Part shown: in pieces, positions 2,405-44,372 of the stretch
How the letters are laid out: each line of letters starts with the position of its first letter
Numbering within the stretch: the first letter of the stretch is position 1
Notes under the pieces: model-generated
What the model was told of the DNA's origin: nothing
Databases searched by the model: none
Seen by the model: the letters and a program-made list of their open reading frames with translations, nothing else
Position numbers and translations under genes: made by a program
Source: an uncultured Clostridium sp.
GTDB taxonomy: Bacteria > Bacillota_I > Bacilli_A > RF39 > UBA660
Length of the DNA: 64,000 bases
NCBI GenBank assembly: GCA_947427095.1
Contig: CANEGO010000002.1
Coordinates: 99,810-163,809, forward strand
Direction: 5' to 3'

Positions 2405-2431
2405 TCAAAAAAGACCGCTTCAAGTCTTTTA
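2405..2431 (-). terminator. Rho-independent terminator after the N/Q-rich gene, just upstream of the rpiB RBS
   Basis: Hairpin AAAAGAC-N8-GTCTTTT followed by a U-run on the minus strand. Confidence 0.45.
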
Positions 2432-3610: not shown

Positions 3611-3646
3611 ATTATAATTCCCCTTTATCTTTAATTAAATAATACA

Positions 3647-3677
3647 ATAAAAAAGCCACTATTACAATGGCTTTTTC
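3647..3677 (-). terminator. Terminator at the rsmG 3' end
   Basis: AAGCCA-N9-TGGCTT hairpin followed by a T-run on the minus strand. It overlaps the last rsmG codons. Confidence 0.55.
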
Positions 3678-6179: not shown

Positions 6180-6789
6180 CTTCTTTTAAATTAACTTCGT
6201 AAATAAACTGTTCTTCTTTTTCTGTTTTAGCTTTATCGAAATAAATTGGCTCTTCGTAAATTTTTTTAAAACCTAAACGTTCATAATATTTATAGTTACA
6301 ATCATCATCAGTTACTATTTTTAGTTTTTTCATGTTATCTTTTCTTGCCAAATTAAAAATCATTTTTAATAGTTCGGATCCATAACCATTTCCTTGATAT
6401 TTTTTATCAACTATGAAAATAATAATATCTCCATCATATTTATTATCAAATTTAGATTCTATTTTATCATACAATTCATTATATCTTGCGAAAGCTTTTT
6501 TATCTTTTATAAAAGGGCCTTTTACTATTAAAGATTTTAAAAATTTATAGAATTTTTTTTTAACCAAAAATTTTTTGGAGTCTCTCTTTTCATATGCACA
6601 AAAACCAATTACTTTATTATCTACTTTTTTTATTATCATCCGCTCTGATTTTGATAATATATCAAATAATAAATAATAAGCACACCAAGGGCCAGTTGTT
6701 TTTGATTCTTCCTCCCCCAATTCCCACTGGTTATGTAAAATATTCATCATTTGCCTTAATTCTTTAATTTTCAAATAAATCACCAACAT
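6172..6789 (-). CDS. GNAT-family N-acetyltransferase (205 aa)
   Basis: Acetyl-CoA-binding motif A (VDKKYQGNGYGSELLKMIF) and YYERLGFKK. The stop overlaps the mnmG start by 8 nt, so it is co-transcribed with mnmG. Confidence 0.7.
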   Translation of the reverse strand: MLVIYLKIKELRQMMNILHNQWELGEEESKTTGPWCAYYLLFDILSKSERMIIKKVDNKVIGFCAYEKRDSKKFLVKKKFYKFLKSLIVKGPFIKDKKAFARYNELYDKIESKFDNKYDGDIIIFIVDKKYQGNGYGSELLKMIFNLARKDNMKKLKIVTDDDCNYKYYERLGFKKIYEEPIYFDKAKTEKEEQFIYEVNLKEGE

Positions 6790-6824
6790 TTCTTTTGGTA
6801 TTATACAATATAATTAAAAAAAAG

Positions 6825-7763
6825 TTAATTCCTAACTCTTTCCATGTTATTTAATTTATAACTTATTAAATAAATCCCATAATCATTTACGTATTGCATT
6901 ATAAAATTATCATTATTTTTTGATATAATTAATCCAATTGTTTTATTATGATATTTCATCTTTAAAGTTTTATCTACTATTTTTCTATATAGCTGTATTT
7001 GGCTAATATCTTTATAATTAGTGTTATTAAGTTTTAATTCTACTGGTATATAACAATTTAGATTGGTATTGAATAACATCATATCAACATAAAAGGGCTT
7101 ATCTAGATACGTTAATTTATACTCACTTCCTGCATATAAAAATCCTGTTCCTAGCTGCAAAAAGAAATCTCTTAACTCTTCTAATATATATTTTTTAAGC
7201 ATCTTTTCACTTAAATTTTTATTGTTTAGAGCTTTTATAATAATTGGATCTAATAACATATCTTTTAAACTATAATCTAATTCTTTATTTGTATCTATTA
7301 GTTTTATATTATTTTTATCTGCATAATATAATCTATCAAAGGCTTTTTCTTTTATTAATTTAATTAGTTCTCTCTTAGACAAATTATTTAAAATACATTG
7401 ATTTATATAATAATTTCTTTCATTTTCATTTTTTATTGGAAGCAGATAACGCCAATGGGTCCAAGTTATGTTAAATTGGTGGCCCGCTGGGCCACCTTTT
7501 TGAGTAACTATTAAAAATTGCCTCATTCTCTTTAAATTAGATATATCATAACCCTTACCATATTGTTCTACTAACTTTTTAGACCAATTCTTAATAAGTT
7601 CATTGCCATATTTAGCCCTTGTTTCTCCACCTTGTGCTTCTACTAATAACTTACCAATTTCATAATAAGCTTCTAATGTATCTTTATTAGATTGTAATCT
7701 TCTTACTCCTTCATTTATTTCTTTATTTTCTATTACGTTTTTTATTTTCTTATAATAATCCAT
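6825..7763 (-). CDS. DUF1016/YhcG-like protein with a C-terminal PD-(D/E)XK nuclease motif
   Basis: N-terminal YhcG-like region and a C-terminal ..FYVDMMLF..IPVELKL.. (D...ExK) motif. It has its own TATAAT -10 and GGAG RBS downstream of the mnmE terminator. Confidence 0.6.
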   Translation of the reverse strand: MDYYKKIKNVIENKEINEGVRRLQSNKDTLEAYYEIGKLLVEAQGGETRAKYGNELIKNWSKKLVEQYGKGYDISNLKRMRQFLIVTQKGGPAGHQFNITWTHWRYLLPIKNENERNYYINQCILNNLSKRELIKLIKEKAFDRLYYADKNNIKLIDTNKELDYSLKDMLLDPIIIKALNNKNLSEKMLKKYILEELRDFFLQLGTGFLYAGSEYKLTYLDKPFYVDMMLFNTNLNCYIPVELKLNNTNYKDISQIQLYRKIVDKTLKMKYHNKTIGLIISKNNDNFIMQYVNDYGIYLISYKLNNMERVRN

Positions 7764-13344: not shown

Positions 13345-13581
13345 TTTTCCACATTTGAGAAAAATAATTTTTTTATTACAAAAAAGATAACCACATACTT
13401 TTCCACAGATTTACACTGTTTTTTTCTATATTTCTTAATAATTACAATAATAATTAACAGTTTGTGGATAACTTTTACATGTTTACTATTTTATTAATAA
13501 TTTATTTTTTGGGGAAAAGTGCATTTTGTCGAAATTTGTTGAAAAATAAGAATTATAATTGTGGAAAACTCTTGTGGAAAA
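13345..13581. promoter_or_regulatory. oriC upstream DnaA-box cluster with the dnaA promoter region (5 boxes)
   Basis: TTTTCCACA at 13345 and 13399, a perfect TGTGGATAA at 13463, and TGTGGAAAA at 13560 and 13573, all immediately upstream of dnaA. Confidence 0.8.
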
Positions 13582-13672
13582 AATATAATTTATCAATATA
13601 CGTTGTTTTTCAACATTTTTTTTGGTAAAATAGATGTAAATAACTCGTTTTATAGGGGGAAAGGAGGTTATT

Positions 13673-15022
13673 ATGAACATAGATAATCTATGGGATAATT
13701 TCCTAGAAAAAATTAAACCAAGAATATCTTCATTATCTTATGATACTTGGTTTAAGAATACAAAACTAGTATCACTAGATAATAATGTTGCAAAAATACT
13801 TGTAGATTCGCCACTTCAAAAGAAAAGTTTACAAGAAACCTGGTATCAAACGATATCCGATGTATTTAGTGAAATAACGAATACAAGTTTCGATTTTGAA
13901 TTTGTTTTTGAAGATGAGGTAAGCATAAATACGAATATTCCTGTGGAAAACATCGGAGTTCCTTTAAATACACCAGAAAAATCAAATCTAAATCCTAAAT
14001 ATACGTTTGATTCTTTTATAACAGGTGATAGTAATAAGTTTGCTTACATGGCTGCGGTTTCAGTTGCAGAAAATCCAGGTAAAACTTATAATCCATTATT
14101 TTTATATGGAAATAGTGGACTAGGTAAAACTCATTTAATGCATGCAATAGGAAACTTTATTATCGAAAATTCAAATAAAAAAGTATTATATGTAACAAGT
14201 GAACAATTTATATCAGATTTTCTTAACCTTAATAAAAAGGATGAAACTGGTACAAATTTTAACTACATAGATAGCTTTAAGAACAAATATCGTGGAGTAG
14301 ACGTACTAATAATTGATGATATTCAGTTTTTAGGAGGCGCTACACAAACACAGCAAGAGTTTTTTAACACTTTTAATAACTTGTATGACGATAATAAACA
14401 AATTATAATCTCATCTGACAGATCACCGGATGACTTAAAAAAATTAGAAGATAGATTAAGAACCAGATTTAATTGGGGTCTTAGTGTAAATATTTATCCA
14501 CCTGATTATGAAATGAGAGTTCAAATTCTTAGAAAAAAAATAATTGGACAAAACATGGATGGTACGATAAATGATGATGTTATTGCTTATATTGCTAATA
14601 ATTGTGAATCGGACGTAAGGCAACTAGAGGGTGCACTAACTAGGGTTATTGCTTATGCAACGATGTTTAATACAAGAGATATTAATTTAACGCTAGCGAT
14701 TGATGCACTAAAAGATTATTTATCAAAATCTTCGTTTACTAAAAATAATATTCAAAAAATTCAGCAAGTTGTATCAGAATATTATAATATAACGGTGGAA
14801 GATTTAAAATCCAAAAAAAGAAAGGCAAGTATAGCGTTTCCAAGGCAAGTAGCGATATATCTATGTAGAACAATGACGGATGAGTCTTTTCCAAAAATTG
14901 GAATACAATTCGGTGGAAGAGACCATTCAACTGTTATACATTCGGTTGATAAAATTGATAATGAAATAAAAACTAATCCTCAATTTAAAACAATAATAGA
15001 TGCATTAAAAAGTAAAATATAA
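13673..15022 (+). CDS. dnaA: Chromosomal replication initiator DnaA
   Basis: Full-length DnaA with the AAA+ Walker A GNSGLGKTHL and the C-terminal DNA-binding domain. A GGAGG RBS is present. Confidence 0.97.
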   Translation: MNIDNLWDNFLEKIKPRISSLSYDTWFKNTKLVSLDNNVAKILVDSPLQKKSLQETWYQTISDVFSEITNTSFDFEFVFEDEVSINTNIPVENIGVPLNTPEKSNLNPKYTFDSFITGDSNKFAYMAAVSVAENPGKTYNPLFLYGNSGLGKTHLMHAIGNFIIENSNKKVLYVTSEQFISDFLNLNKKDETGTNFNYIDSFKNKYRGVDVLIIDDIQFLGGATQTQQEFFNTFNNLYDDNKQIIISSDRSPDDLKKLEDRLRTRFNWGLSVNIYPPDYEMRVQILRKKIIGQNMDGTINDDVIAYIANNCESDVRQLEGALTRVIAYATMFNTRDINLTLAIDALKDYLSKSSFTKNNIQKIQQVVSEYYNITVEDLKSKKRKASIAFPRQVAIYLCRTMTDESFPKIGIQFGGRDHSTVIHSVDKIDNEIKTNPQFKTIIDALKSKI

Positions 15023-15027
15023 TAAAC

Positions 15028-15160
15028 TGTGGATTAAATTAAATTTTTCAACTTAATTTGTGGATTAAAAATATTAGTTTTTCTTTTATTTAATAACAAA
15101 TATTTAACTTTTCCACATTATCCACAGTAATAATAAAAATACATATATATATATAAGGAG
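15028..15160. promoter_or_regulatory. oriC downstream DnaA-box cluster plus an AT-rich DNA-unwinding element between dnaA and dnaN
   Basis: TGTGGATTA at 15028 and 15059, TTTTCCACA at 15109, a perfect TTATCCACA at 15118, then a (TA)7 tract at 15143-15156. Confidence 0.8.
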
Positions 15161-16352: not shown

Positions 16353-17375
16353 ATGCCTAAGATTTTAGTGGCTGATTTATTTGGTACAATAATTCCAAAT
16401 AATATATTGAATGCTAATTATTTATATGTAAACATAGATAAATATAAAGATATTAATGAAATTTGTTATGATAAAAATCAGCATGAGTATTTGATTGAAA
16501 AATTATGTTTACAATGTGCAAATGATTTAAAAAAATTTTTAAACGATGGTAATGAACTTATAATAGCGTCGGATTTATCGGCTCACGAATTAAATTTAAC
16601 TTTTATTTATGAGGAGATTATAGAAAAAATATTAAAGTATTGTAATAAAAATTTTACTTTATATATGGTAACAAAGGGCGGCGCAGCTAGTTTCAACTTA
16701 GAGGTGTTAAAATCTCATATTACTGAAGAATATAGTGAACATGGTATTGATTATATTGTGTTTGAAGGTTATAAAATAGGTCTTATTGATAGAAAGGAAG
16801 ACATATTTAGAGTAGTTGAAAGTAAATTTAACTTACAAGAATGTGAATTATATTCAATTGGAAATGATTACAAAGATATTCCTATGCTTGTTAGATGTAT
16901 TGAGTTAGGTGGAAAAAGTTCTTTATTAAACTATAATTTATATTCTAACGAACTTCTTTCAAGAACTACGTTAGATAAAGCTATATGTGAAAGGATTCAA
17001 AGAGAAAATCATATATTATTAGAAAAAGAGTTGTTAAAAGACCATCCTGGTTTTAGTTTGTTAGATAAGTATAAATATTTAATGGAAAGAAGGCTAACTT
17101 CAGAATATAATAGATGGTATGAAAAAAGAAAAGAGGAGCTTTATCAAGAAGTAAGAAAAGGTAATATTACGTTAGAACAATTAATTAAAGAAAAATTAAT
17201 TTTTGGACTTTGTCAAACTGCTATTAATCATTGTTTAGAAAGGAAAACATTCATCGAAAATAATTTAGATAAAATAGATATGTATTCTACTTTTAGAGAT
17301 TATTATAATAAAGTACTTAATTGTGATTCAAAAGAAGAAATAAAAAAATCACCCGTAAAATTATTAAAACCTTAA
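16353..17375 (+). CDS. HAD-superfamily (Cof-like IIB) protein with a degenerate motif I and a roughly 130-aa charged helical C-terminal extension
   Basis: Motif IV SIGNDYKDIPML is present and motif I reads ILVADLFGTII (DxD changed to DxF). It has its own TATAAT promoter and an AAAGGAGG RBS. Confidence 0.55.
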   Translation: MPKILVADLFGTIIPNNILNANYLYVNIDKYKDINEICYDKNQHEYLIEKLCLQCANDLKKFLNDGNELIIASDLSAHELNLTFIYEEIIEKILKYCNKNFTLYMVTKGGAASFNLEVLKSHITEEYSEHGIDYIVFEGYKIGLIDRKEDIFRVVESKFNLQECELYSIGNDYKDIPMLVRCIELGGKSSLLNYNLYSNELLSRTTLDKAICERIQRENHILLEKELLKDHPGFSLLDKYKYLMERRLTSEYNRWYEKRKEELYQEVRKGNITLEQLIKEKLIFGLCQTAINHCLERKTFIENNLDKIDMYSTFRDYYNKVLNCDSKEEIKKSPVKLLKP

Positions 17376-17407
17376 GAAAAAAGAAGAATTTAATCTTCTT
17401 TTTTTCA
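17376..17407 (+). terminator. Terminator after the HAD-like gene
   Basis: AAAAAAAGAAG-N8-CTTCTTTTTTT hairpin. Confidence 0.55.
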
Positions 17408-17433
17408 TTATCTGACAATTTTTTTAAAAATAC

Positions 17434-17442
17434 TGTGGATAA
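17434..17442. promoter_or_regulatory. Perfect DnaA box (TGTGGATAA) overlapping the predicted -10 region of the comK-like gene
   Basis: Exact reverse complement of TTATCCACA, 33 nt upstream of the start codon. Confidence 0.4.
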
Positions 17443-17474
17443 TATAGTCAAATATTTTTAAAGGAGGGTTTTGT

Positions 17475-17936
17475 ATGAAAAATTATGAAATTAATAGGCA
17501 AACGTTAGCAATAATATCTTGTGGAAAGGAAAAATCAAAAATAATAGAAGAAAATAATGAGTTTTTTATTGATCAATCTTCTACTAAAATAATTGATGAT
17601 AGTTGTAGGTTTTTTGGTAGTTCATACGATGGGAGACTTAATGGGACTAAAAGTATTTTAGGTGTTTCACACAAAGCACCCATTATTATTGAAGAAAGTT
17701 CTGGTATAATATTTTTTCCAACCACATCTCCTAGATTAGATTGTTGTTCATGGATTTCTTTAAACAATATAGAAGAATACTATAAATTATATGGTGATAC
17801 AATAATAAAATTTAGTTGTGGAAAAAAAATAAAGTTAGAATTATCGTATGGAATAATTGATAATCAAATATTAAGAGCAACGAGATTAGAGGCATTAATA
17901 GCAAAAAGAACTTATAATTTAAAAAAAATAGCTTAA
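17475..17936 (+). CDS. comK: ComK-family competence transcription factor homologue (153 aa)
   Basis: DDSCRFFGSSYDGR and HKAPIIIEESSGIIFFPTTS align with B. subtilis ComK DRSCRFFGSSYAGR and HKPPIMVDPSNQIFLFPTLS. An AAAGGAGGG RBS is present. Confidence 0.7.
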   Translation: MKNYEINRQTLAIISCGKEKSKIIEENNEFFIDQSSTKIIDDSCRFFGSSYDGRLNGTKSILGVSHKAPIIIEESSGIIFFPTTSPRLDCCSWISLNNIEEYYKLYGDTIIKFSCGKKIKLELSYGIIDNQILRATRLEALIAKRTYNLKKIA

Positions 17937-21114: not shown

Positions 21115-23583
21115 ATGGATCATAGTAAAGATAGATTAGAACATAATAATATAGTAGATGAAGTAAGATCATCATTCCTAGAATATTCAATGAGTGTAAT
21201 AGTATCTCGTGCATTACCAGACTTAAGAGATGGTTTAAAACCAGTTCATAGAAGAATTTTATATTCAATGTATGAATCTGGTTATACCCCAGATAAACCA
21301 CATAAGAAATCGGCAAGAATTGTCGGTGATGTAATGGGAAAATATCATCCACACGGGGACTCATCAATTTACGAAGCCATGGTTCGTATGGCGCAAGATT
21401 TTTCTTTTCGTTATATGCTTGTTGATGGTCATGGTAACTTTGGTAACATTGAAGGTTATGGGGCAGCAGCAATGCGTTATACAGAGTCAAGATTATCTAA
21501 AATGTCCCTTGAGTTGCTAAGGGATATAAATAAAAATACAGTAGATTTCGCACCTAACTTTGATGAATCTGAAAAAGAGCCTAAAGTATTACCTTCAAGA
21601 TTTCCTAATATATTAGTAAACGGAACTATGGGTATTGCTGTTGGTATGGCAACAAATATTCCACCACATAATTTATCTGAAGTAATAGATGGGTGTGTTG
21701 CTTACATTGATAATCCTGAAATTGATACTTTAGGTTTAATGCAATACGTAAAGGGGCCTGATTTTCCAACTGGTGGTATAATTTTAGGAAATAAAGGTAT
21801 AAGACAAGCCTATGAAACTGGTCGCGGTTCAATCACGATTAGGAGTAGGGCTAAAATAGAAGAAAAAAATGGTAAAAACTATATAATAATTGATGAAGTT
21901 CCTTATGGTGTTAATACTTCAGATTTAAAAAATAAGGTTGCGGAACTTGTTCATAGCAAAGTATTAGATGGCATTTCTGATTACCATACTGACTTAAAAG
22001 ATGGCATTAAAATAACAATTACGTTAAAAAGAGATGCAAATCCTCAAGTTGTATTAAATAATTTATATAAACATACAGCTTTCCAATCAAATTTTGGTAT
22101 TATTTTCTTAATGCTCGACAATGGAACACCAAAAACATTAGGATTAAGAGATATAATTTCAAAATATATTGATTATCAAAAAGAAATAGTCATAAGAAGA
22201 ACCAAATTTGATTTAGCAAAGGCTGAAAATAGAGTTCATATTTTAGAAGGTTATAAGATTGCTTTAGATAACATTGACGAAGTAATTAAGATAATTAAAG
22301 AAGCAGAAAGCGATGTAGTAGCTAAAGAAAAATTAATAAAGAGATTTGGATTCTCACAAATTCAAGCTGATAATATACTAGAATTAAAATTACGTAGGTT
22401 AACAGGTTTAGAAAGAAGTAAAATAGAATCTGAATTACAAGATTTACTTAAATTAATAGAAGAATTAAAGTCTATTTTATCTAGTGATGCTAATGTCTTA
22501 GCAGTTGTAAAAAAAGAATTACTAGAAGTTAAAAATAAATATGGAGATGAAAGAAGAACAACTATTGATATGACAGCGATTGATTTTATCGAGGATGAAT
22601 CTTTAATTCCAGAAGAAGATATTGTTGTTGCATTAACTCATAAAGGATATATCAAGAGAATGCCTACAGATACCTATAAGCTTCAAAATAAAGGCGGAGT
22701 AGGAATAAAAGGAATGTCTACTAACGATGAAGACTTTGTTGAAGTATTGAAGGTAGGAACGACTCATAATCATGTATTATTCTTTACTAATAAAGGTAAA
22801 GTATATAGAATCAAAGGTTATGAAATTCCAGAATTTTCAAGGCAATCAAAAGGCTTGCCAATAATAAATCTACTTCCAATAGAAAAAGATGAGAAAATTA
22901 ATAGCATTTTACTTGACAATGGTGATGAAAATAACAAATATTTAGTAGTAACAACAAAGACAGGCTTAATCAAGCGTACAAATGTTTGTGAATTTGAAAA
23001 TATTAGAAAGAATGGTAAAATTGCTATTACGCTAAAAGAAAATGATGAAGTATTATCAGTTCACTTTACTAATGGAAATGATGATGTAGTAATTGCCTCT
23101 AATAATGGAAGAATGATTAGATTTAATGAAAATGAAATCAGAGTAATGGGTAGAAATGCAAGCGGAGTTAAGGGTATTGAATTATCAAAAGATTGTTATT
23201 GTGTTGGAGCAGAAATAGCTCATGCAGGACAGGATGTTTTAGTTGTAACTGAAAGGGGTTATGGAAAACGTACTGACATAAATGAATATAGATTAACTCA
23301 TCGCGGCAGCAAAGGTGTTAAAACTCTTAATATAACTGATAAAAATGGTGCAATTGTGGCATTTAAGACGGTAACCGAAGATAAAGATTTAATGATAATA
23401 ACGGATCAAGGTATTGTAATTAGAATATCTTTAGATAAAGTTTCAAGGATGAGTAGAGTTACACAAGGTGTGCGATTAATGAATTTGAGAGAAGGTCAAA
23501 AGGTTGCTACTGTATCTGCTGTAGAAAAAGAAGATCAAATTGAAGAAAAATTAGAAGAAGATGAAAAGAAAACTAGTGAATAA
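21115..23583 (+). CDS. gyrA: DNA gyrase subunit A
   Basis: Active-site region ..AAMRYTE.. and C-terminal beta-pinwheel repeats; 822 aa. Confidence 0.97.
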
Positions 23584-23597
23584 CTGGTTTTCTTTTT

Positions 23598-23623
23598 TTT
23601 AATGTTTCACGTGAAACATTAAT
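23598..23623. repeat. Perfect 24-bp palindrome TTAATGTTTCACGTGAAACATTAA (copy 1), between the gyrA stop and the ffs promoter
   Basis: Exact self-complementarity read directly from the sequence. Confidence 0.9.
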
Positions 23624-23671
23624 TAAGTATAATAATTCTTGATTATTTATTAATAATATAATAAAATATAA

Positions 23672-23750
23672 ATGCACAACGGAAATGCTAGAATCAGGTC
23701 AGGGCCGAGAGGCAGCAGCCTTAATAACCTCTTTTCGTGTGTGCTTTTTT
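23672..23750 (+). ncRNA. ffs: Signal recognition particle RNA, short 4.5S-type (ffs/scRNA)
   Basis: The domain IV core CAGGUCAGGGCCGAGAGGCAGCAGCC matches the conserved SRP RNA motif (E. coli CAGGUCAGGUCCGGAAGGAAGCAGCC). The 5' GCACA and 3' UGUGC ends can pair. A TATAAT -10 sits at 23657-62 and a U-run at the 3' end. Its position before dnaX mirrors B. subtilis scr. Confidence 0.6.
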
Positions 23751-23762
23751 AATTTAAAATAT

Positions 23763-23780
23763 ATGTTTCACGTGAAACAT
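23763..23780. repeat. Perfect 18-bp palindrome ATGTTTCACGTGAAACAT (copy 2), in the tadA promoter/5'UTR just upstream of the RBS
   Basis: Exact palindrome, 6 nt upstream of the GGAG RBS. Confidence 0.9.
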
Positions 23781-23794
23781 TATAGGAGAATAAA

Positions 23795-24205
23795 ATGCAA
23801 AAAAAATTTATAGAACTGGCAATAAAGGAAGCAGTAAAAGCATTAAAAAAGGGAGAAGTGCCAGTTGGAGCTATAATTATAAAAAATGGTAAAATTATTG
23901 CTAAAGCACATAATTTGGTAGAGAAGCGAAGAAATGCTACATTTCATGCAGAAATTTTAGCTATGACTAAAGCATACGGAAAAACAAAAAATTGGAGACT
24001 GAATGACTGTGAAATGTATGTTACATTGGAGCCTTGTAAGATGTGTGCTGCCGCAATAGAACTAAGTAGGATTAAAAAGGTCTATTATTTGTTACCTAAA
24101 GATAAAGAAAATATTTTTATTAATAAAGAAAAATATATATTTTTAAAAGATTATAAAAAAGATTCCTTAGATTTGATACATAGTTTTTTTAAAAAAATAA
24201 GATAA
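23795..24205 (+). CDS. tadA: tRNA-specific adenosine deaminase TadA
   Basis: Zinc-binding HAE (FHAEILAM) and PCxxC (EPCKMCAAAI) motifs. Confidence 0.85.
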   Translation: MQKKFIELAIKEAVKALKKGEVPVGAIIIKNGKIIAKAHNLVEKRRNATFHAEILAMTKAYGKTKNWRLNDCEMYVTLEPCKMCAAAIELSRIKKVYYLLPKDKENIFINKEKYIFLKDYKKDSLDLIHSFFKKIR

Positions 24206-24225
24206 TGTTTCACGTGAAACATTAT
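24202..24225. repeat. Perfect 24-bp palindrome ATAATGTTTCACGTGAAACATTAT (copy 3), overlapping the tadA stop codon and upstream of the dnaX promoter
   Basis: Exact palindrome. It may also act as an intrinsic terminator hairpin, since a U-rich tract follows it. Confidence 0.9.
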
Positions 24226-24288
24226 CTTTTAGTTTAAAAATAATAGTTAAAATGATATAATATAAAAGTAAATGAAAGGAGAGATTGC

Positions 24289-25932
24289 ATGGCATATCAA
24301 ACGTTATATAGAAAATATCGCCCAAAGAGTTTTAAACTAGTATATGGCCAAGATACTATAGTAAGAACTTTAAAAAATGTAATTAAAAATAATAAGTTAA
24401 GTCATGCATATCTGTTTACTGGGCCAAGAGGGACCGGAAAAACAAGTAGTGCTAAACTTTTTGCAAAAGCTATAAATTGTTTAAACAATCAAAATGGAGA
24501 TGCATGTAATGAATGCGATAATTGCAACTCATTTAATAATAATAAAAATCCGGATATAATTGAAATTGATGCTGCTTCAAATAATGGCGTGGATGAAATA
24601 AGAGAAATAAAAAATAAGATTAGTTTAGTTCCATCAATGTCAAAGTATAAAGTATATATAATTGATGAGGTACATATGCTTTCTATAGGTGCGTTTAATG
24701 CCCTGTTAAAAACTTTGGAAGAGCCACCAGAATATGTTATTTTTATATTGGCGACTACAGAGCCTCAAAAATTACCCGTAACAGTAATTTCACGATGCCA
24801 AAGATTCGATTTTAAAAACATATCTAAGCAAAATATGAAAGAATGCCTTAAAAATATAATCATGGGGGAAAATATAAATATTAGCGATGATGCATTAAAT
24901 GAAATTATAGATAATTCTAACGGTGGAATGAGAGATGCCATAGGAATGTTAGATCAAGCTTTTGCTTTTTGTGAGAAAGAAATCACTTTAAATGATATTC
25001 AAGAATTATCTGGTAGTATTTCAACTTCAGAAATATCTTCTTTCTTTAAAAATTTAAAGTTAAAATCATACAATGAAATTATAGATATGATAAAAAATTG
25101 GTCAAATAAAGGAAAGGATTTTTTTGTGATATCTCAAAAACTAATTAACATTACTAGAAATGCTATTTTGTATAAGAAAAATGTTGATATAGGAGAAACA
25201 AGAATAAATAATTTAAGTGTATTTGATGAATATAATGAATTAAATTTATATTTAATAATTGATAATTTGACTGAAACACTAAATAAATTACAATTTAGTT
25301 ATCAAAAGGAGTTAATATTTGAAATACAAATGATTAAATTAATTGATCAATTCAATGTTCCACGTGAAACATTGAATAAAAAAATAACAGAGCAATCAAA
25401 GCCTATCATAAAAAATGATGTTCCACGTGGAACATTGAATGATAATACATCTGTAGTTGAAAAATTAGATCAATTTATTTTGAAATTAAAAGAAATTAGA
25501 ATAAATAATATATTAAAAGAGTCTTCACGCAATGAATTAAAATATATAGATGATTTATGGGAAAATATAAATGATTATTTGGTGGAAGAAAAATATAAAA
25601 AATGCGCGGGCATACTATTACAATGTAAACCTGTTGCAGCTTCAAAAAATGGAATTATAATTACACTGCCAGCACAGTCATTGTTAGTGGAGATTGAAAA
25701 AAATTATGACTTTAGCAAAGAAATGATAAAAGAAATATTAAATTCAAAGTATAAAATTGTATATATAACAGATGAGTATTGGAAAAGTATAAGACCTAAA
25801 TATGTGGAATTAGTAAAAAATAATGAATTAGAGATAAAGGATGAACTACAATTGCTTTCTAAAATAAATAAAATTAAAAGCGAAACGTCTGTTAATGAAT
25901 TTGATGAATTAATTGAAATGGAGGAAAAATAA
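24289..25932 (+). CDS. dnaX: DNA polymerase III subunit tau/gamma
   Basis: Walker A GPRGTGKTS, a Zn module CNECDNC, and tau C-terminal domains. Extended -10 TGATATAAT and GGAG RBS. Confidence 0.95.
   Translation: MAYQTLYRKYRPKSFKLVYGQDTIVRTLKNVIKNNKLSHAYLFTGPRGTGKTSSAKLFAKAINCLNNQNGDACNECDNCNSFNNNKNPDIIEIDAASNNGVDEIREIKNKISLVPSMSKYKVYIIDEVHMLSIGAFNALLKTLEEPPEYVIFILATTEPQKLPVTVISRCQRFDFKNISKQNMKECLKNIIMGENINISDDALNEIIDNSNGGMRDAIGMLDQAFAFCEKEITLNDIQELSGSISTSEISSFFKNLKLKSYNEIIDMIKNWSNKGKDFFVISQKLINITRNAILYKKNVDIGETRINNLSVFDEYNELNLYLIIDNLTETLNKLQFSYQKELIFEIQMIKLIDQFNVPRETLNKKITEQSKPIIKNDVPRGTLNDNTSVVEKLDQFILKLKEIRINNILKESSRNELKYIDDLWENINDYLVEEKYKKCAGILLQCKPVAASKNGIIITLPAQSLLVEIEKNYDFSKEMIKEILNSKYKIVYITDEYWKSIRPKYVELVKNNELEIKDELQLLSKINKIKSETSVNEFDELIEMEEK
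25354..25375. repeat. Near-perfect palindrome CAATGTTCCACGTGAAACATTG (copy 4), in frame inside dnaX
   Basis: One mismatch from a perfect palindrome. It encodes ..NVPRETLN.. in the dnaX linker. Confidence 0.85.
25418..25435. repeat. Perfect 18-bp palindrome ATGTTCCACGTGGAACAT (copy 5), in frame inside dnaX
   Basis: Exact palindrome. It encodes ..DVPRGTLN.., 60 nt after copy 4. Confidence 0.9.
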
Positions 25933-37586: not shown

Positions 37587-37675
37587 TATATGAACTTTTT
37601 TATTTGTGTTTATTGATTTTTATCCCCATTTGTGGTTAAATTAAAATGTATAAACTAAAATGGGAGGACTATACT

Positions 37676-40600
37676 ATGAACATGGCAAAGTCGAATATTA
37701 AAAGCAGATTAAGTGATTGGTTTCTTATTCAGAGAATTAGAATAACTAATTTTATGAAGGAACATAAGTATGTTTCGGCGTTTATTGGTGTTTTTTTAAT
37801 GTCTTCCTTAATTGCTTTCATAGTTTACGCGGTTGATGCAAACAAGTATGATGGTCAGGTTTCAGTTACGGCTAAAGTTGAGCAAAAAAACGTATCTTCA
37901 AGCGAGGAAATTACACATATTAAAAGCTTTAGCAACATCATATATGATATATCATATGGATTATCAATATCAGACTTACCTGCCAACGAAACGGTTGTAA
38001 GGGAAAAAGTAATAATTGAAGCAGAATTTAACGAAGGTATTGATGCTGAATGGATATTCCAGGACGAGGATGCAACTTATGAATTGTCAGAAGATAAAAG
38101 AAAGTTAACGGTAACTATTTATCAAACTAAGGTTGGGGAACTTAACAGCAAGCAATTGTATTTAAAAGCAAAAAATATACAAAATGGAACAGTTATAAAT
38201 ACGAATATTAGAATAAAGGAATCTACCGCCGCAGATTTTACTGATTTAGGTCAAAAAAGTGTAGTAATAGAAAGTGAAAAAGTTGATTTAACTACTAAAA
38301 TAATATCTGGCACAGCTTATAAATCTTCTGACTATCAAGAAGGACGATTAGCTCCTTTTGGTATATTAGTTGGATTTGATAAAAGTAATCTTAAAACAGA
38401 GAATAAAGATAGTTTAGAGGGGCTTTATTTTGATCCTAATTTGAGTTTAATATTAGAAGCAACTCAGACTGTAAATGGAGTTAATTCTCAAATAGAATTA
38501 AAAAATGATAGTAATAAATTTTTTGGATTATATGATAAAGGATCTAATTTATTGCCATTGATGCCACATCATATAAATAATTATCAATATTATTCAGTAT
38601 ATAATTCCGGTAAGGTTACAAACTTAATCAAGTCAAAAAGTGGGGTTTCCGGTGTTGTTACTGAAAATAAAAATCCAGATTTATATTTAATAGGTGATAA
38701 AACCATGAATTTAGAGCTTGGAGAAAAATACGAAGAATATGGTGTGTCAACAACAAATGGTGGTTCAGCTATTTGCAAAACAAGCAGTTCTTCCTGCACC
38801 CGTGTTATAAAAGATAAAGATGGAAATGAAATCGCTGATAATGACGTTACCAAATCGGTTGGTAATTATATTGTTAGCTATGAATATAATACGGCAAGTG
38901 GTGTTACTAAGGTTAACAGAAATATCAAAGTTGCTGAAAAAACAACGGCTACTTTAAATGATGATGTGTATGAACTAAACGGTAATAAAATCATTACTTT
39001 AGTAAAAGGTACAGCTTATTCTGAAAGTGGAATAATAAAAAATGGTGCTAAATATTATAATTATGAAAGTATCATAACAAAAGATGGAGATGTTATTGAA
39101 AAAATAGACGCAACCATAGTTGGTACCTATGTAATAACTTATAAAATTACTGATGCTACTAGTCAGACGCCAGAAACTGGTGAAGAGACCCTGGCAGAGG
39201 AATCTACCATTAAAGAAGTTTCGTTAACAAGGACGGTTAAAGTAGTTGAAGGCTTGGAGTATTTGAAAGCACAAACGATTACTTCCAGCACTATTTATGC
39301 TCCGTCAGATGGTTCATTTACTAACCCTTTAATAAATCTTGATGGCAAGGATATAGAATGTACAAGCGATAGTGGATGTGAGGTTAAATATTATGATCCA
39401 ATTAGTAAAAAAGAAACAACTATTGATAAACAAAAAGCTGGAACATATAATGCTATATATAAAATAACCGATAAAAATGGATTTGAACTACAAACGGGAA
39501 ATGTTATTAATATTCAAACTAAATATGATTTTAATATAGAGGGAATAAAATCTGATGGAACTATTAATTTATATGGAGACGATTTTGTTGCATTAGGTTC
39601 TTATTTTGTAAATGCGGCATCTCCTAGAGCTCTTGAAGCAAGTGGTGATATTGCAGTTAATCTAAGAATTGGTGATGTAGTATCAGAAAATGTTATTAAT
39701 AAAGTTTATTCGGCAGGAACGAAAACTAATCATTTAACATTTAATACCGATACCTCTGGAATGTTAACAGAGTTGCCAAATGACACTTATTTAGCTTATG
39801 GTGAAGAAGTTATTTTAAGATCGGTATTTAATTATTCTAGTGATGGCGATGATAATATTGGAACTTTAACAACTAGGATTCCGATTGGTACGGCTGTTTC
39901 ATCAGCAAATAATCCGACCGCTCCGTTTACTATGGTTGAGTATAATAATAGTGTGGAGAATGGTGAACCCTATTACGTAAATGAGGAATTAAAAGATAAA
40001 GTAAAAGTTAGCTATTATGCATGTGAAATGGAAGAATCTAAGACAACCTGTATTAGTGAAACCGGAGCAACTTATGAAACTTTTGATACATTAAATGACG
40101 CTTTGAAGAAAAATGATAAATTAAGATTAGCTTATTTAACATACGTGGTTAATGACGTAAGACCTGGCTCTGAAATTGATTTTAGGATTAGATTAGTTGC
40201 TAACGTTGGAAATCATGATGGAGTACTTACAATGACATCAACATCTACATTTGATGAAAAGCAAGAAAATGGAACTAGTCAAAGTAAAAATATATCTGAT
40301 AATAGTACTATAAACGTTACCGCGTTTAAGGCAAGGACTAAAGTGTTTATTGGTAATAGTGAACAAGACGTCATAATAAATGCCGCTAATGTAAATAGCT
40401 CAACGTGGACTATTTATCCGACAATAAGTTTACCAGCAGAGTTAGTAAATACTAATATAGCGGCTATAGATGAACTTTCTAATATTACAATCGTTGTTAC
40501 TTTGCCTGATGGAATTAATTATTTATATAATGAAAATTATGATATTCCTTCAGTAAGTAATAATGGCAAAACCCTAACTTATGTTTTAAAGGGGAAACAC

Positions 40601-42250
40601 GTTAATGAGTGGATTGATCCGATAACGTTTGAGGCTAGTTATGATATAGATATTCCTTCTGGAACAAGAAAGGAAGTTAACGTTTTAATACAAGCAACGT
40701 CAACCAGTGGAATATCTGATGCATCTAGTAAAAACTTAAGAACAACAACGAGAGCAGTGACATATCAAAATAACGAAGTAATAACATATGCACAGTATAC
40801 TCCATATACAGCAATATCTAAAGAGACAAGTTTTAATGTAAGCACTAAATTATACAATAATGATAGTAAAGAAGTAACGCATTCAAATTTAGATATTGTA
40901 ACGCTACTTCCGTATAATGATGTAAGTAACGAAAAAAATAAATATACAGGCACATATACTATATCTAATTTACCTAAGGGAGCTTTATGTACAACTAGTA
41001 TTCCATCCGTAATAAGTGACTCTAAAAAACTTTTATCTGGTGATGAAATAACATGGGAAGATTGTTCTAAATATCAATCTGAGAACTATGTTGGCATTAC
41101 GGCCATTAGGGTTAATGGTATAAGTCTTGCTGCTAGAAAAACTTATGAACAAAGTATAACAATTAATCCAATAGGTAATAAAACAGATGATTCATATCAA
41201 ATTAATTCGTATTTAATCATGGATTCTGATGGTAAAAGGATTGTAAAAAATATTAAAGCTTTAAATATTGATGTTATTAGTAAAAGAATAACTGGTACGG
41301 TTTGGGAAGACTTTGACGCCAACGGTATTATGGATGCACAAGAAAAAAAGGTGTCAGGGGTTACTTTAAAATTATACAATGCGGAAACTGACGAACTTGT
41401 AAAAACTACTACTTCTGATGAAAAGGGTAAATATAGTTTATCTGATTTGATTCCGGGCACCTATTATGTAGTGGCAGAGTATAATACGGCAAAATATGGT
41501 TTATCACCATATCAAGTAACACTAGATAAATCTGTTAGTTCCTCGTTTAATGCAACTAAGGTTAACGAAGATAATATTGACTCTAAAAATAGTAATACAA
41601 AAGATGATATAGTATCTTCCGAATCGACAAAAGAAGATGTAGAATGCACTGGTGATGAGTGTACAGATCTTGACCCCTCTGATAAACTGGAAGAAACTCA
41701 GCCTGTTATTAGGACCGAAAATATAGAAATAAATAGTAATACTAGAATGGTTAGTAATGTTAATCTTGGTCTTGCACTTAGAAAGACATATTCTGTTAAA
41801 TTGACAAAGTATGTAACAAAGGCAATTACGACTAATAATCTTGGTGTATCAACAATAAAAGATTATGGTAATGTTTCTTTGGCAAAATTGGACGTAAAGG
41901 ATATAAATAATTTAGGTATTAAGGTTGTTTATACTTTAGAATTAGAAAATACTGGTTATTATCCTGGTTATATTTATTCTGTGAAGGATTATATTCCAGA
42001 TGGGATGAAGTTTAATGAAAATTATGAAGAAAATAAAGGTTGGGTAATGACTGAATATGGTTATTTGGAAAATAACACTTTATTTGATCAGTTGGTTGCT
42101 GGGGGAGAAAAGAAATATCTTACAGTCGCCTTTGATATCGTAAGAAAAGAAGCTGGCTCTTTTGTTAACTATGCGGCAGTGGATGATGAAGATTTACAAA
42201 TTTTAGTTGTTGCTGGAAATGAAGGAGAAGAAGGTGATAGTAATGAATAA
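37676..42250 (+). CDS. Giant N-terminally membrane-anchored surface protein (about 1525 aa) with a C-terminal CnaB/SdrD-B-type domain and a DUF11 domain
   Basis: Start set at the ATG 8 nt after GGGAGG; the track starts at 37646. A TM helix (VSAFIGVFLMSSLIAFIVYAV) follows a short cytoplasmic tail. ITGTVWEDFDANGIMDAQEKKVSGVTLKLYNAETDELVKTTTSDEKGKYSLSDLIPGTYYV is a classic CnaB/SdrD B repeat. The terminal VVYTLELENTGYYPGYIYSVKDYIPDGMKF is DUF11-like. There is no C-terminal sorting signal. Confidence 0.7.
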   Translation: MNMAKSNIKSRLSDWFLIQRIRITNFMKEHKYVSAFIGVFLMSSLIAFIVYAVDANKYDGQVSVTAKVEQKNVSSSEEITHIKSFSNIIYDISYGLSISDLPANETVVREKVIIEAEFNEGIDAEWIFQDEDATYELSEDKRKLTVTIYQTKVGELNSKQLYLKAKNIQNGTVINTNIRIKESTAADFTDLGQKSVVIESEKVDLTTKIISGTAYKSSDYQEGRLAPFGILVGFDKSNLKTENKDSLEGLYFDPNLSLILEATQTVNGVNSQIELKNDSNKFFGLYDKGSNLLPLMPHHINNYQYYSVYNSGKVTNLIKSKSGVSGVVTENKNPDLYLIGDKTMNLELGEKYEEYGVSTTNGGSAICKTSSSSCTRVIKDKDGNEIADNDVTKSVGNYIVSYEYNTASGVTKVNRNIKVAEKTTATLNDDVYELNGNKIITLVKGTAYSESGIIKNGAKYYNYESIITKDGDVIEKIDATIVGTYVITYKITDATSQTPETGEETLAEESTIKEVSLTRTVKVVEGLEYLKAQTITSSTIYAPSDGSFTNPLINLDGKDIECTSDSGCEVKYYDPISKKETTIDKQKAGTYNAIYKITDKNGFELQTGNVINIQTKYDFNIEGIKSDGTINLYGDDFVALGSYFVNAASPRALEASGDIAVNLRIGDVVSENVINKVYSAGTKTNHLTFNTDTSGMLTELPNDTYLAYGEEVILRSVFNYSSDGDDNIGTLTTRIPIGTAVSSANNPTAPFTMVEYNNSVENGEPYYVNEELKDKVKVSYYACEMEESKTTCISETGATYETFDTLNDALKKNDKLRLAYLTYVVNDVRPGSEIDFRIRLVANVGNHDGVLTMTSTSTFDEKQENGTSQSKNISDNSTINVTAFKARTKVFIGNSEQDVIINAANVNSSTWTIYPTISLPAELVNTNIAAIDELSNITIVVTLPDGINYLYNENYDIPSVSNNGKTLTYVLKGKHVNEWIDPITFEASYDIDIPSGTRKEVNVLIQATSTSGISDASSKNLRTTTRAVTYQNNEVITYAQYTPYTAISKETSFNVSTKLYNNDSKEVTHSNLDIVTLLPYNDVSNEKNKYTGTYTISNLPKGALCTTSIPSVISDSKKLLSGDEITWEDCSKYQSENYVGITAIRVNGISLAARKTYEQSITINPIGNKTDDSYQINSYLIMDSDGKRIVKNIKALNIDVISKRITGTVWEDFDANGIMDAQEKKVSGVTLKLYNAETDELVKTTTSDEKGKYSLSDLIPGTYYVVAEYNTAKYGLSPYQVTLDKSVSSSFNATKVNEDNIDSKNSNTKDDIVSSESTKEDVECTGDECTDLDPSDKLEETQPVIRTENIEINSNTRMVSNVNLGLALRKTYSVKLTKYVTKAITTNNLGVSTIKDYGNVSLAKLDVKDINNLGIKVVYTLELENTGYYPGYIYSVKDYIPDGMKFNENYEENKGWVMTEYGYLENNTLFDQLVAGGEKKYLTVAFDIVRKEAGSFVNYAAVDDEDLQILVVAGNEGEEGDSNE

Positions 42251-44372
42251 AAAAGTTAAAAATATTATATTAGTTATTCTTCTTTCCATTACTACCTTCT
42301 TTAGCTTTAACAACATTTTATTTGCTAAAACAGGGCAAATACACCCTCATAGTAATACGAATTATAAAAATGCAGTATATCGAATGAATGGTGTTAATAA
42401 AGATAAGAACATAGGTTGGGTTGGAATTTATAATATAAATGGGCAACATGCTTATTGTATAGAATTAGGAACACCTCTATCTCCTGGGTATGATCCTAAT
42501 AATAACGTTGATTTTAACGATTATTCATATGGTTTTTTCAAGAATTTAAGTGCCTCAGAACGAGCTGCTAGAAGTACTAGAATCGCTTATATATTAACGT
42601 TTGCTGAAAATATTGGTACTGTTCCGGCAGAGAGTGCCATGAATAAAACTCAAGCGTTAAGAATTTATGCTGCTCAAGGTTTAATTTGGGAAACTATGAC
42701 TGGGGAGAGAACTTCTTTTAATAATTTGTGGCCAGAAAATCATCAGGGAACGGCTTGTAGTTTTTACGATGTTGTTCATAGCAGAAATGGTTGTAATAAG
42801 GGTAATGATATGAGCGTGATCTCCCAAGAGTATGATCGTATTGTAAAAGCAATCCAATCTACGTTTTTAGATAGTAATCCGGGGGAATCTGGTAAAACTT
42901 TTAAACCAGGTGGTAGTGAAAACAAAGTGGCTCTTTCTTGGGATGGTTCAAAATATACTTTAAGAATTAATGATTATAATTTTTCGTATTGGGAAGTAAT
43001 CAAAACCGATGGTCTTCAAGTAGAAAAAGGTTCAAATTATATTACTATTTCAAGTAAAAATCCAATTGATGAAAATGCTGCAAAGCAGGTTGGTATTCAG
43101 ATTATTAATAAAAATAATAGTTCTAATATCGCGAAGGCATATTATCATGATAGTTTGCAAGATCTTACTACTATTGTAGGTACTACATTACAAAGATATA
43201 TTAAGGTATACACACCAAAATATCAGTTAAAAATCACTAAAAAAGCTTCTTTAGATGGAAAGGTTTTAAGTGGAGCAAAATTCAATATTTGTTCAAATAG
43301 TTCCTGTACAAAAATATTAGGTACGGTAACAACGGATAAAAATGGAACTGCAACATTTCAAAGTATCCCATCACCAGGTACTTATTATGTAAAGGAAATA
43401 GTTGCTCCGCCGGGGTATGAACTTGATTCAACACCACGTGCCGTTACTGTTTCATCTTCTAGTATCGCGGGATCATCAAGTTATGGGGTGATAACTTTAA
43501 CTGATGCGAATAAAGTATTTAACTTAACAAAAAAGACAGTTGATGAAAATGGAAACGTTATTGATTTAGATGATGGATGTGGAACAGATAATTATACTGG
43601 TCCAGAATTTGAGATTAAAGAAAACGGAAGTAGTCTTTATTTTAAAGAAATAAAACCAGGTGAATATGATGTTTCAAGTAAGGATGCTGATGGTGCAACA
43701 ACAAAGCTTAGAACTTGCAAAGGAAAATTCAAAGTTTATACTTTGCCAAAGTGTAATTACACCATATCGGAAACTAAAGCTCCAGAAGGACTTACTTTGC
43801 CATCCGAACCAACAAAAGCAATTAACGTTTGTGGTTCTGGGAAAAACGTATCATTTACCAATGGATTTGCAGGTTTAGAATTTCAAAAAAAAGATGAGGA
43901 TGGTAACTTTGTAGAAGGAGGAAAATTTTCTCTCCAAAGAAGGGTAAATAATGTTTATCGTGATATTTTACTAAAACAAGTAGAAGATGGTAGTTATGTT
44001 TACGATGCTAATCTAAAAGAAGAAGACGAAGGAGCTACTTATATAATTCTTACTAATAAAGGTATAGCACGCATTTCAAAATTAGCACCTGGTGAATACA
44101 GGGTGGTAGAAAAAGAGGCTCCAGAAGGATTTGAACTTATTCAAGATAAGGATTCCAAATCTTTAGTTACCATAAAAGATAGTGATAAAGAAGGATATTA
44201 TTTAGTAGAAATGATTGACCAAAAGGTTAGGAAAAATGGAAGTAAATCCTCCGCTGAACTTGTAGTTACGATCACAACTGGTAGAAAGGTTCCAAATTAT
44301 ATACTTATTATTTCTGCTTTAGTTATTATGCTTGTAATAGCTATATTGATAAGAAAAAAAATAAAAAAATAG
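42243..44372 (+). CDS. Secreted adhesin/pilin-like protein (about 709 aa) with a possible thioester-type N-domain, two SpaA-like prealbumin-fold domains, and a C-terminal TM helix with a KR-tail cell-wall-anchor-like signal
   Basis: The ATG overlaps the upstream stop (ATGAATAA), with a GAAGGAG RBS. Signal peptide MNKKVKNIILVILLSITTFFSFNNILFA. YCIELGTP and AAQGLIWE resemble the Cys and TQxA(I/V)W Gln motifs of thioester domains. GTYYVKEIVAPPGYELDSTPRAVTV and KLAPGEYRVVEKEAPEGFELIQ are SpaA-like. The C-terminus is ..VVTITTGRKVPNYILIISALVIMLVIAILIRKKIKK. Confidence 0.65.
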   Translation: MNKKVKNIILVILLSITTFFSFNNILFAKTGQIHPHSNTNYKNAVYRMNGVNKDKNIGWVGIYNINGQHAYCIELGTPLSPGYDPNNNVDFNDYSYGFFKNLSASERAARSTRIAYILTFAENIGTVPAESAMNKTQALRIYAAQGLIWETMTGERTSFNNLWPENHQGTACSFYDVVHSRNGCNKGNDMSVISQEYDRIVKAIQSTFLDSNPGESGKTFKPGGSENKVALSWDGSKYTLRINDYNFSYWEVIKTDGLQVEKGSNYITISSKNPIDENAAKQVGIQIINKNNSSNIAKAYYHDSLQDLTTIVGTTLQRYIKVYTPKYQLKITKKASLDGKVLSGAKFNICSNSSCTKILGTVTTDKNGTATFQSIPSPGTYYVKEIVAPPGYELDSTPRAVTVSSSSIAGSSSYGVITLTDANKVFNLTKKTVDENGNVIDLDDGCGTDNYTGPEFEIKENGSSLYFKEIKPGEYDVSSKDADGATTKLRTCKGKFKVYTLPKCNYTISETKAPEGLTLPSEPTKAINVCGSGKNVSFTNGFAGLEFQKKDEDGNFVEGGKFSLQRRVNNVYRDILLKQVEDGSYVYDANLKEEDEGATYIILTNKGIARISKLAPGEYRVVEKEAPEGFELIQDKDSKSLVTIKDSDKEGYYLVEMIDQKVRKNGSKSSAELVVTITTGRKVPNYILIISALVIMLVIAILIRKKIKK

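Follow-up and report, generated by a model that had tools for sequence, protein, structure and literature searches.

What is the function of five copies of one palindrome that lie within 1.9 kb of DNA around gyrA, ffs, tadA, and dnaX in an uncultured member of the Bacilli? An earlier note on this DNA had proposed an operator for an unidentified dimeric regulator that coordinates SRP RNA, tRNA editing, and the clamp loader, with a miniature palindromic repeat or RNA hairpins as alternatives. We conclude here that the five palindromes are very probably chromosomal parS, the centromere-like loading sites for ParABS/SMC that are found near oriC. The analysis covers the 64-kb window (the whole stretch of DNA under study) together with left (~10 kb) and right (~4 kb) extensions that were reached through rpiB and tilS. 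The source is metagenome contigs, and the readable DNA of this organism amounts to ~80 kb.

Positions of the Five Palindromes

The sequence ATGTTYCACGTGRAACAT occurs five times in the window, with starts at positions 23602, 23763, 24205, 25355, and 25418. For shuffled sequence, 0.07 matches to ATGTTYCACGTGRAACAT are expected at three or fewer mismatches, and five matches were reached in 0 of 100 shuffles. No sixth copy was found in the 64-kb window, a scan of the window with the 16-mer TGTTNCACGTGAAACA returned no site with fewer than two mismatches beyond these five, and the ~14 kb of extensions contained no copies. The coordinates, the shuffles, and the 16-mer scan agree with the earlier claim that the five copies are nonrandom and occur nowhere else in the 64 kb. 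Half-sites (GTTTCAC) outside the full sites are not enriched in the window (8 observed versus ~6 expected).

None of the five features is assigned to a strand. Copy 1 (23602–23619) has the core TGTTTCACGTGAAACA at 23603–23618 and is contained within a 24-bp perfect palindrome at 23599–23622, with the stop codon of gyrA (21115–23583) on one side and ffs on the other. The gene for the small SRP RNA, ffs, is found on the plus strand at 23666–23757 (Rfam RF00169, 52 bits), between the first two copies; the gene serves as context and lies outside the element. Copy 2 (23763–23780; core 23764–23779) follows the 3′-end of ffs and precedes the ribosome-binding site of tadA (23795–24205), and its palindrome is perfect over 18 bp only. 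The first base of copy 3 (24205–24222; core 24206–24221) doubles as the third base of the tadA stop codon. This copy is embedded in a 30-nt perfect palindrome (24199–24228) that is followed by a T-rich tail, and it lies upstream of a promoter-like site for dnaX (24289–25932, plus strand). Copies 4 (25355–25372; core TGTTCCACGTGAAACA at 25356–25371) and 5 (25418–25435; core TGTTCCACGTGGAACA at 25419–25434) are both in-frame within the variable linker of DnaX, at approximately residues 350–385. The palindrome of copy 4 is imperfect, with C at position 5 versus A at position 12. The gene assignments from Pfam (gyrA, tadA, and dnaX) and Rfam (ffs) are the same as those given earlier. The perfect palindromes had been described as 18–24 bp in length, and this range holds for copy 1 (24 bp) and copy 2 (18 bp) but is exceeded by copy 3 (30 nt).

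Sequence Identity to parS

In B. subtilis and across many phyla, the consensus reported for parS, the site recognized by ParB/Spo0J, is TGTTNCACGTGAAACA (PMC7022226). Four of the five cores match this consensus exactly, and copy 5 has a single mismatch, at the position that mirrors the N. When compared with the parS definition tGTTNCACGTGAAACa, a 16-bp palindrome, the cores likewise show no mismatches in four cases and one mismatch in the fifth. Copies 1–3 are identical to TGTTTCAC-GTGAAACA, the idealized parS used for the ParB co-crystals (PMC7383237). The identity of these sequences with parS is a direct observation. The earlier proposal of a binding site for a dimeric protein would be correct as to the class of site, now parS, but the protein need not be called unidentified since the ParB/Spo0J consensus is matched.

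The number of parS sites per genome is 10 in B. subtilis, 4 in S. pneumoniae, 5 in Caulobacter crescentus, 10 in Corynebacterium glutamicum, 22 in Myxococcus xanthus, and 21 in Streptomyces coelicolor (PMC7022226). Five sites is a typical count.

The Noc-binding site (NBS), TATTTCCCGGGAAATA, is also a 16-bp palindrome; each of its half-sites has two positions that distinguish it from parS, and it is recognized by Noc, a ParB paralogue and CTP-dependent clamp (PMC7383237). This assignment was rejected. There are no matches to TATTTCCCGGGAAATA in the window at two or fewer mismatches, and the window sites carry the parS-specific bases, unlike an NBS. Noc-binding sites are dispersed around the chromosome and do not cluster at the origin.

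Proximity to the Replication Origin

The replication origin region was assigned to positions 13345–15126 (no strand) from the DnaA boxes, the GC skew, and the flip in gene orientation. Clusters of DnaA boxes are found at 13345–13581 and 15028–15126, on either side of dnaA (13673–15022), and the GC skew switches sign at 13–14 kb. The genes rnpA/yidC/jag/mnmE/mnmG/rsmG are on the minus strand, and dnaA/dnaN/recF/gyrB/gyrA are on the plus strand. With oriC at ~13.3–15.1 kb and the parS sites at 23.6–25.4 kb, the cluster is observed 8.5–10.4 kb to the right of the origin. In published genomes parS is restricted to the origin region (PMC7022226, PMC7383237).

Conservation and Turnover in Relatives

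Relatives were gathered by a DnaX search of genome contigs. Approximately 16 related uncultured Bacilli genomes have 2–10 parS copies in the same gyrA-ffs-tadA-dnaX interval. The corresponding loci from cultured Bacillus, Staphylococcus, Streptococcus, and Lachnospiraceae have none, with the exception of one match with a single mismatch in Viridibacillus (L018). A logo constructed from 79 sites (22 sources) is variable only at position 5 (T56/C21) and position 12 (A62/G16), corresponding to the position at which the consensus tolerates variation and to its mirror. Outside the 16-mer, conservation extends no further than one base.

The individual copies duplicate, decay, and move from slot to slot, and those that survive retain the full 16-mer. 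The slot of copy 1 is intact in one relative (L007) and decayed in another (L006). The ffs/tadA slot that holds copy 2 has one parS in the window, three in L006, and four in L007, where they form a 44-bp tandem array; the tandem arrays of the relatives have periods of 44, 126, and 167 bp. Copy 3, by the dnaX promoter, does not vary among the window, L006, and L007. The slot of copy 4 is retained in L006 and decayed in L007, and that of copy 5 is retained in both. In more distant relatives, every copy is located between gyrA and ffs, with none at tadA or dnaX. The location of the centromere is fixed at gyrA-ffs-tadA-dnaX across the clade while the individual copies turn over fast.

There are eight coding copies of parS in four genomes, and all eight are in the poorly conserved DnaX linker, where each is read in a single hydrophilic open frame, V-[S/P]-R-[E/G]-T. 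In the window, copy 4 reads NVPRETL and copy 5 reads DVPRGTL in the dnaX frame. The parS inside spo0J of B. subtilis is likewise translated as NVPRET. The probability of the exact codon spelling of the coding copies, from the codon usage of the window, is P = 0.019 and 0.008. These copies hold the DNA motif despite divergence of the surrounding linker, and the disordered linker has been used repeatedly as the host of an in-frame parS. The 79-site logo, the coding copies, and the slot turnover display the constraint that characterizes parS, at the level of the DNA and with variation at the tolerated position only. Purifying selection on the DNA, accompanied by turnover of the sites, is directly observed in these relatives.

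Alternative Explanations

The pattern over the relatives fits a loading site for ParB, rather than an operator tied to promoters, a repeat that is mobile, or a family of RNA hairpins. The operator reading, in which a dimeric transcription factor would co-regulate ffs, tadA, and dnaX, draws on the promoter-proximal placement of copies 1–3. Copy 1 contains the −35-like hexamer of one promoter-like match for ffs, copy 3 stops 11 bp short of a dnaX −35-like hexamer that is paired with an extended −10, and this dnaX-promoter copy is unchanged across the window, L006, and L007. However, a known site that is not an operator has exactly this sequence (PMC7022226, PMC7383237). Neither copy number nor promoter spacing is conserved among the relatives, two to three copies are found ~1.1 kb into the dnaX coding region, there is no regulator gene adjacent, and the distant relatives have all of their copies at gyrA-ffs and none at tadA or dnaX. 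A fixed position relative to a promoter, which defines the operator class, is absent, as number and placement vary among the window, L006, L007, and the distant relatives. We consider it very unlikely that these are operators. The alignment of the region that had been suggested as a check gives 1, 3, or 4 copies in the ffs/tadA slot and no conserved promoter-relative position, so the proposal of an operator coordinating SRP RNA, tRNA editing, and the clamp loader is not sustained, given this variability and the identity with parS. Judged from the sequence, the element is one that is already understood, and not a new operator.

The proposal that the palindromes act as RNA hairpins or intrinsic terminators is best served by copy 3, with a 13-bp stem (−14.6 kcal/mol, z = −6.0) followed by the T-rich tail, an arrangement that is terminator-like on both strands. 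Copy 3 may double as the tadA terminator hairpin, and to this extent the earlier suggestion stands. It does not extend to the family: copy 3 alone forms a stable, G+C-containing hairpin that runs directly into a U tract at a gene end, whereas the hairpins of copies 1, 2, 4, and 5 are weak (−6.9 to −10.9 kcal/mol, z = −1.5 to −2.8) and lack a U tract. The middle of a gene is the setting for copies 4 and 5, and gyrA has its own terminator-like hairpin (23563–23597) immediately before copy 1. A hairpin would also permit compensatory changes, yet the sequence is invariant over the 79 sites. A function at the level of the RNA is thus highly improbable as the general explanation. Copies that are palindromic, mostly intergenic, and, in the relatives, part of 44–167 bp tandem units might suggest a dispersed repeat or miniature mobile element (REP or MITE), but those arrays are local duplications with units that differ by genome. 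The five window copies have no similarity outside the 18-mer, terminal repeats and target duplications are lacking, and no copies are present elsewhere in the 64 kb or the ~14 kb of extensions. Because nothing is conserved past one base flanking the 16-mer, and with no copies at unrelated loci of the readable DNA, the miniature repeat alternative was discarded; its probability is close to nil.

Search for the Cognate ParB

Searches of the window and its extensions, the ~80 kb of readable DNA, revealed no parB, parA, or noc, and no cognate ParB (ParB_N + HTH_ParB) was detected there. The searches were conducted with a Spo0J probe validated with Pfam as ParB_N + HTH_ParB + ParB_C. This probe gave no hits by tblastn in the window, the extensions, and all of the loci, and none by phmmer --max over the 105 stop-to-stop ORFs of the window. 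Pfam (ORFs 118 to 46092) and NCBIfam (ORFs without a family) also returned no ParB, and none of three family-less origin-proximal ORFs resembled ParB when read. In many Firmicutes, noc-soj-spo0J occupies the slot after rsmG. Here this slot contains an N/Q-rich low-complexity ORF of 393 amino acids and rpiB, and the par operon is missing from its usual position.

That this organism has a cognate ParB is inferred from how strictly the sites are conserved. The sites could instead be bound by a noncanonical member of the ParB family or by an unrelated protein, as no ParB was found from approximately −23 to +52 kb of oriC and soj-spo0J is not beside rsmG. This is very improbable, since the rsmG-adjacent gene order is not universal, only ~80 kb of the genome was covered, and the recognition of parS by ParB is specific and conserved between species (PMC7383237).

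Comparison with Known Systems

The closest known system is that of parS and Spo0J from B. subtilis (10 sites, 8 of which are in the origin domain), in which the same 16-bp sequence TGTTNCACGTGAAACA is found in multiple copies near the origin at both intergenic and intragenic positions, as in the window. The B. subtilis sites are spread over hundreds of kilobases, whereas the five in the window are within 1.9 kb, and unlike in B. subtilis there is no spo0J/soj operon beside rsmG in the readable DNA. S. pneumoniae, which has ParB without ParA, is similar to the window in its small number of origin-proximal sites, but its consensus, AGTTTCACGTGAAACT, is different (PMC7022226). The clusters from Caulobacter, Corynebacterium, Myxococcus, and Streptomyces occupy a short origin-proximal stretch and support one partition complex, as proposed for the window (PMC7022226). 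The cluster at gyrA-ffs-tadA-dnaX has no parB in view, unlike these Caulobacter-type clusters. The latter are located near the parAB operon.

Proposed Mechanism and Significance

By analogy with other bacteria, where the loading and spreading of ParB and the recruitment of SMC have been described (PMC8494293, PMC7053999, PMC9449133), we infer the same three activities for this organism. Each 16-bp palindrome would be recognized by a ParB (Spo0J) dimer through its helix-turn-helix domains, and parS would catalyze the CTP-dependent closure of ParB to a sliding clamp that leaves parS and spreads across several kilobases of adjacent DNA. Repeated loading at five close sites would build one large partition complex over gyrA-ffs-tadA-dnaX. 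This complex would tag the origin region as the part to be segregated by ParA/Soj, should the organism have it, and would load the SMC condensin, such that the chromosome arms are aligned.

A supplement to the parS reading, compatible with it, is that the ParB loaded at these sites additionally modulates the transcription of ffs, tadA, and dnaX. The spreading of ParB from one parS in S. pneumoniae modulates the adjacent comCDE operon, which provides a precedent for such side effects (PMC4488948), and three of the sites in the window are within tens of bases of promoter-like elements. The variable placement in the relatives argues against promoter-specific selection, and we regard this modulation as unlikely. 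Slightly less likely still is that ParB-CTP clamps over the ffs, tadA, and dnaX promoters tune expression, with selection for this coupling rather than neutral siting. If so, the supply of the clamp loader and the SRP RNA would be coupled to the segregation state of the origin, and that selection would be reflected both in the in-frame DnaX linker copies and in the clade-wide fixed site of the centromere.

In some of the relatives, parS copies are interleaved with Noc-binding sites in tandem arrays. These arrays are the least expected item in this analysis, and they could serve as a system for studying the joint loading of ParB and Noc.

The element itself is textbook, and the main value of its identification is therefore correct annotation, so that it is not mistaken for a new regulon. 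For an uncultured lineage of low-G+C, spore-forming Bacilli, the five sites would mark the centromere.

Identification of the Palindromes as parS

Five copies of ATGTTYCACGTGRAACAT were found in the window, with starts at positions 23602, 23763, 24205, 25355, and 25418. At up to three mismatches the number of matches expected by chance is 0.07, and five were reached in none of the dinucleotide-preserving shuffles. Copies 1, 2, and 3 have the same sequence. The perfect palindrome extends over 24 bp around copy 1 and 30 bp around copy 3 (24199–24228), the symmetry of copy 4 is broken at one mirrored position, and copy 5 is a perfect 18-mer. No further site was found for the 16-mer core at ≤1 mismatch anywhere in the 64 kb window, and isolated half-sites were not enriched in it. 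The search and the shuffles uphold the earlier note, which had described five non-random copies with none elsewhere in the 64 kb; its gene context was also correct (gyrA, tadA, and dnaX by Pfam; ffs by Rfam). Its size range of 18–24 bp fits copies 1, 2, and 5 but not the longer copy 3 or the asymmetric copy 4.

The 16-bp core, TGTT[T/C]CACGTG[A/G]AACA, matches the chromosomal consensus TGTTNCACGTGAAACA of parS, the centromere-like site bound by ParB (Spo0J). This consensus describes 10 sites in B. subtilis, 8 of them in the origin domain, and is also given for many other phyla (PMC7022226). Copies 1–3 do not differ from the idealised parS of ParB co-crystals, TGTTTCAC-GTGAAACA (PMC7383237). 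By sequence, the five palindromes are chromosomal parS, an already known element.

The window includes the replication origin, as determined from GC skew, which changes sign at 13–14 kb, a switch in gene strand, and DnaA boxes. The genes rnpA, yidC, jag, mnmE, mnmG, and rsmG occupy the minus strand up to 13291, and dnaA, dnaN, comK, recF, gyrB, gyrA, ffs, tadA, dnaX, ybaB, recR, and holB follow on the plus strand from 13673, with one cluster of DnaA boxes on each side of dnaA (13345–13581 and 15028–15126). With the origin so placed, the parS cluster lies 8.5–10.4 kb from oriC, as expected for a site that is restricted to the surroundings of oriC (PMC7383237).

Several other features of this region were recorded. 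A 340-aa ORF that matched neither Pfam nor NCBIfam and a gene of the ComK family (16353–17936) interrupt the otherwise conserved dnaA-dnaN-recF-gyrB-gyrA order between dnaN and recF, as they do in locus L001. Between mnmE and mnmG (6172–7763, minus strand) are a YhcG-like PDDEXK nuclease (DUF1016) and a GNAT acetyltransferase; the GNAT gene is absent from L090, a contig with an identical RpiB, which suggests strain-level variation. At 37646–44372, two genes for large surface proteins of 1534 and 721 aa, with SdrD_B, SpaA, and Ig-like domains, have housekeeping and sporulation genes (yabG, yabP, yabQ, divIC) as neighbours. On contig L086 (13590–16423), ∼8–11 kb past the left window edge and ∼21–24 kb from oriC, genes for AgrB, a 41-aa peptide, a histidine kinase, and a LytTR response regulator make up an agr-like quorum-sensing locus.

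Conservation and Turnover of the Sites

The exact DnaX protein was matched only on metagenome contigs, and these carry the same five sites. The nearest genomes by DnaX identity are uncultured Bacilli MAGs: L006 (72%), L007 (64%), and then a group at ∼40%. About 16 of these MAGs have the common synteny dnaA-dnaN-recF-gyrB-gyrA-ffs-tadA-dnaX, with 2–10 parS copies per gyrA-dnaX interval. No parS was found in this interval in the cultured Bacillus, Staphylococcus, Streptococcus, Lactobacillus, and Lachnospiraceae loci, apart from one 1-mismatch site in Viridibacillus (L018). Firmicute-type DnaX is also encoded on contigs labelled Muribaculaceae (L006, L050, L079), Verrucomicrobiota (L063), Bacteroides (L074), and Dehalococcoidia (L082); L006 has the dnaA-to-dnaX synteny of the window, and these labels are probably binning or labelling errors.

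In a logo drawn from 79 sites (22 sources), the only variable positions are 5 (T56/C21) and its mirror 12 (A62/G16); position 5 is the N that the published consensus tolerates. When the intergenic stretches of the window were aligned with those of L006 and L007, three common slots with differing contents emerged. In L006 the gyrA/ffs slot has decayed. In the order window, L006, L007, there are 1, 3, and 4 copies between ffs and tadA, the four in L007 forming a 44-bp tandem array, and 1, 2, and 2 copies between tadA and dnaX.

Copies 4 and 5 are read in the dnaX frame as NVPRETL and DVPRGTL, within a linker of low conservation that joins the ATPase domains to the C-terminal domain. Coding copies number two in the window, two in L006, three in L007, and one in L076, and all eight use the frame V-[S/P]-R-[E/G]-T. 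Of the two alternative frames, one meets TGA whenever position 12 is A, and the other reads xFHV[K/E]x; the hydrophilic frame is the one in use, and a disordered linker can accommodate it. Under the codon usage of the window, the probabilities of the exact codon spelling of the two peptides are 0.019 and 0.008. In L007 one dnaX slot has decayed to TCTGGTGAAAGAGAAA, and an extra copy lies where neither the window nor L006 has one. Taken together, the spelling probabilities and the slot turnover indicate selection for the DNA sequence of these copies rather than for the encoded peptide.

Four more distant uncultured Bacilli MAGs have parS alternating with the Noc-binding site (NBS), consensus TATTTCCCGGGAAATA (PMC7383237), directly upstream of ffs. 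The arrays comprise 5.6 copies of ∼126-bp units in L029 (8622–9327) and 7 copies of ∼62-bp units in L032 (1–440), and the order is parS-NBS-parS in L034 (9280–9394) and L035 (9350–9418). Additional NBS are scattered across these four loci, whereas none was found in the window, L006, or L007. A non-exhaustive literature search returned no description of natural interleaved ParB/Noc site arrays.

In many Firmicutes, noc-soj-spo0J adjoins rsmG. This cluster is not at its usual place in the window (region 2429–4363, minus strand) or in contigs L086–L089, where rsmG is followed by an N/Q-rich ORF of 393 aa, low in complexity and matching no family, and then rpiB, spoIID, an M23 peptidase gene, spoIIID, and mbl. 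Neither parB, parA, nor noc was found in the window, the ∼10 kb to its left, or the ∼4 kb to its right. Because the sites are strictly maintained in three diverged genomes, we infer that the organism has a ParB; this sub-lineage may lack Noc, since the window has no NBS.

Alternative Explanations and Proposed Function

The earlier note had proposed an operator through which a dimeric regulator would act on the neighbouring promoters of ffs, tadA, and dnaX. An operator needs a fixed position relative to its promoters, but placement and copy number vary among relatives, some copies lie in mid-gene, and distant relatives have all copies between gyrA and ffs. The comparative alignment that it had called for gave changing slot contents and no fixed promoter-linked arrangement; with the parS identity of the sites, the operator is not supported. 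A mobile element, including the miniature palindromic repeat also considered there, is excluded because the flanks of the copies are not conserved: in the logo, conservation beyond the site covers one base per side (A and T) and none further out. A role as RNA hairpin or terminator, the remaining suggestion, is plausible only at copy 3, which has a 13-bp stem with a T-rich tail (−14.6 kcal/mol, z = −6.0) and whose 30-nt palindrome at the tadA stop codon, with A-rich and T-rich runs on its sides, scores as terminator-like on either strand. Hairpins at the other copies are weak, and gyrA has a terminator-like hairpin of its own (23563–23597).

As parS sites, by analogy with other bacteria, the copies would be bound by ParB dimers, and parS would catalyse the CTP-dependent closing of ParB, which as a sliding clamp would spread to flanking DNA (PMC8494293, PMC7053999). 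The partition complex would recruit SMC (PMC9449133) and act with ParA in origin segregation (PMC7022226). Five sites in 1.9 kb would nucleate one complex across gyrA-ffs-tadA-dnaX, and its spreading could possibly modulate neighbouring transcription as a secondary effect, for which comCDE of S. pneumoniae is a precedent (PMC4488948). The element is already known and its interest is low; the exceptions are a placement specific to the clade, the DnaX copies that stay in frame, and the arrays of parS and NBS in relatives.
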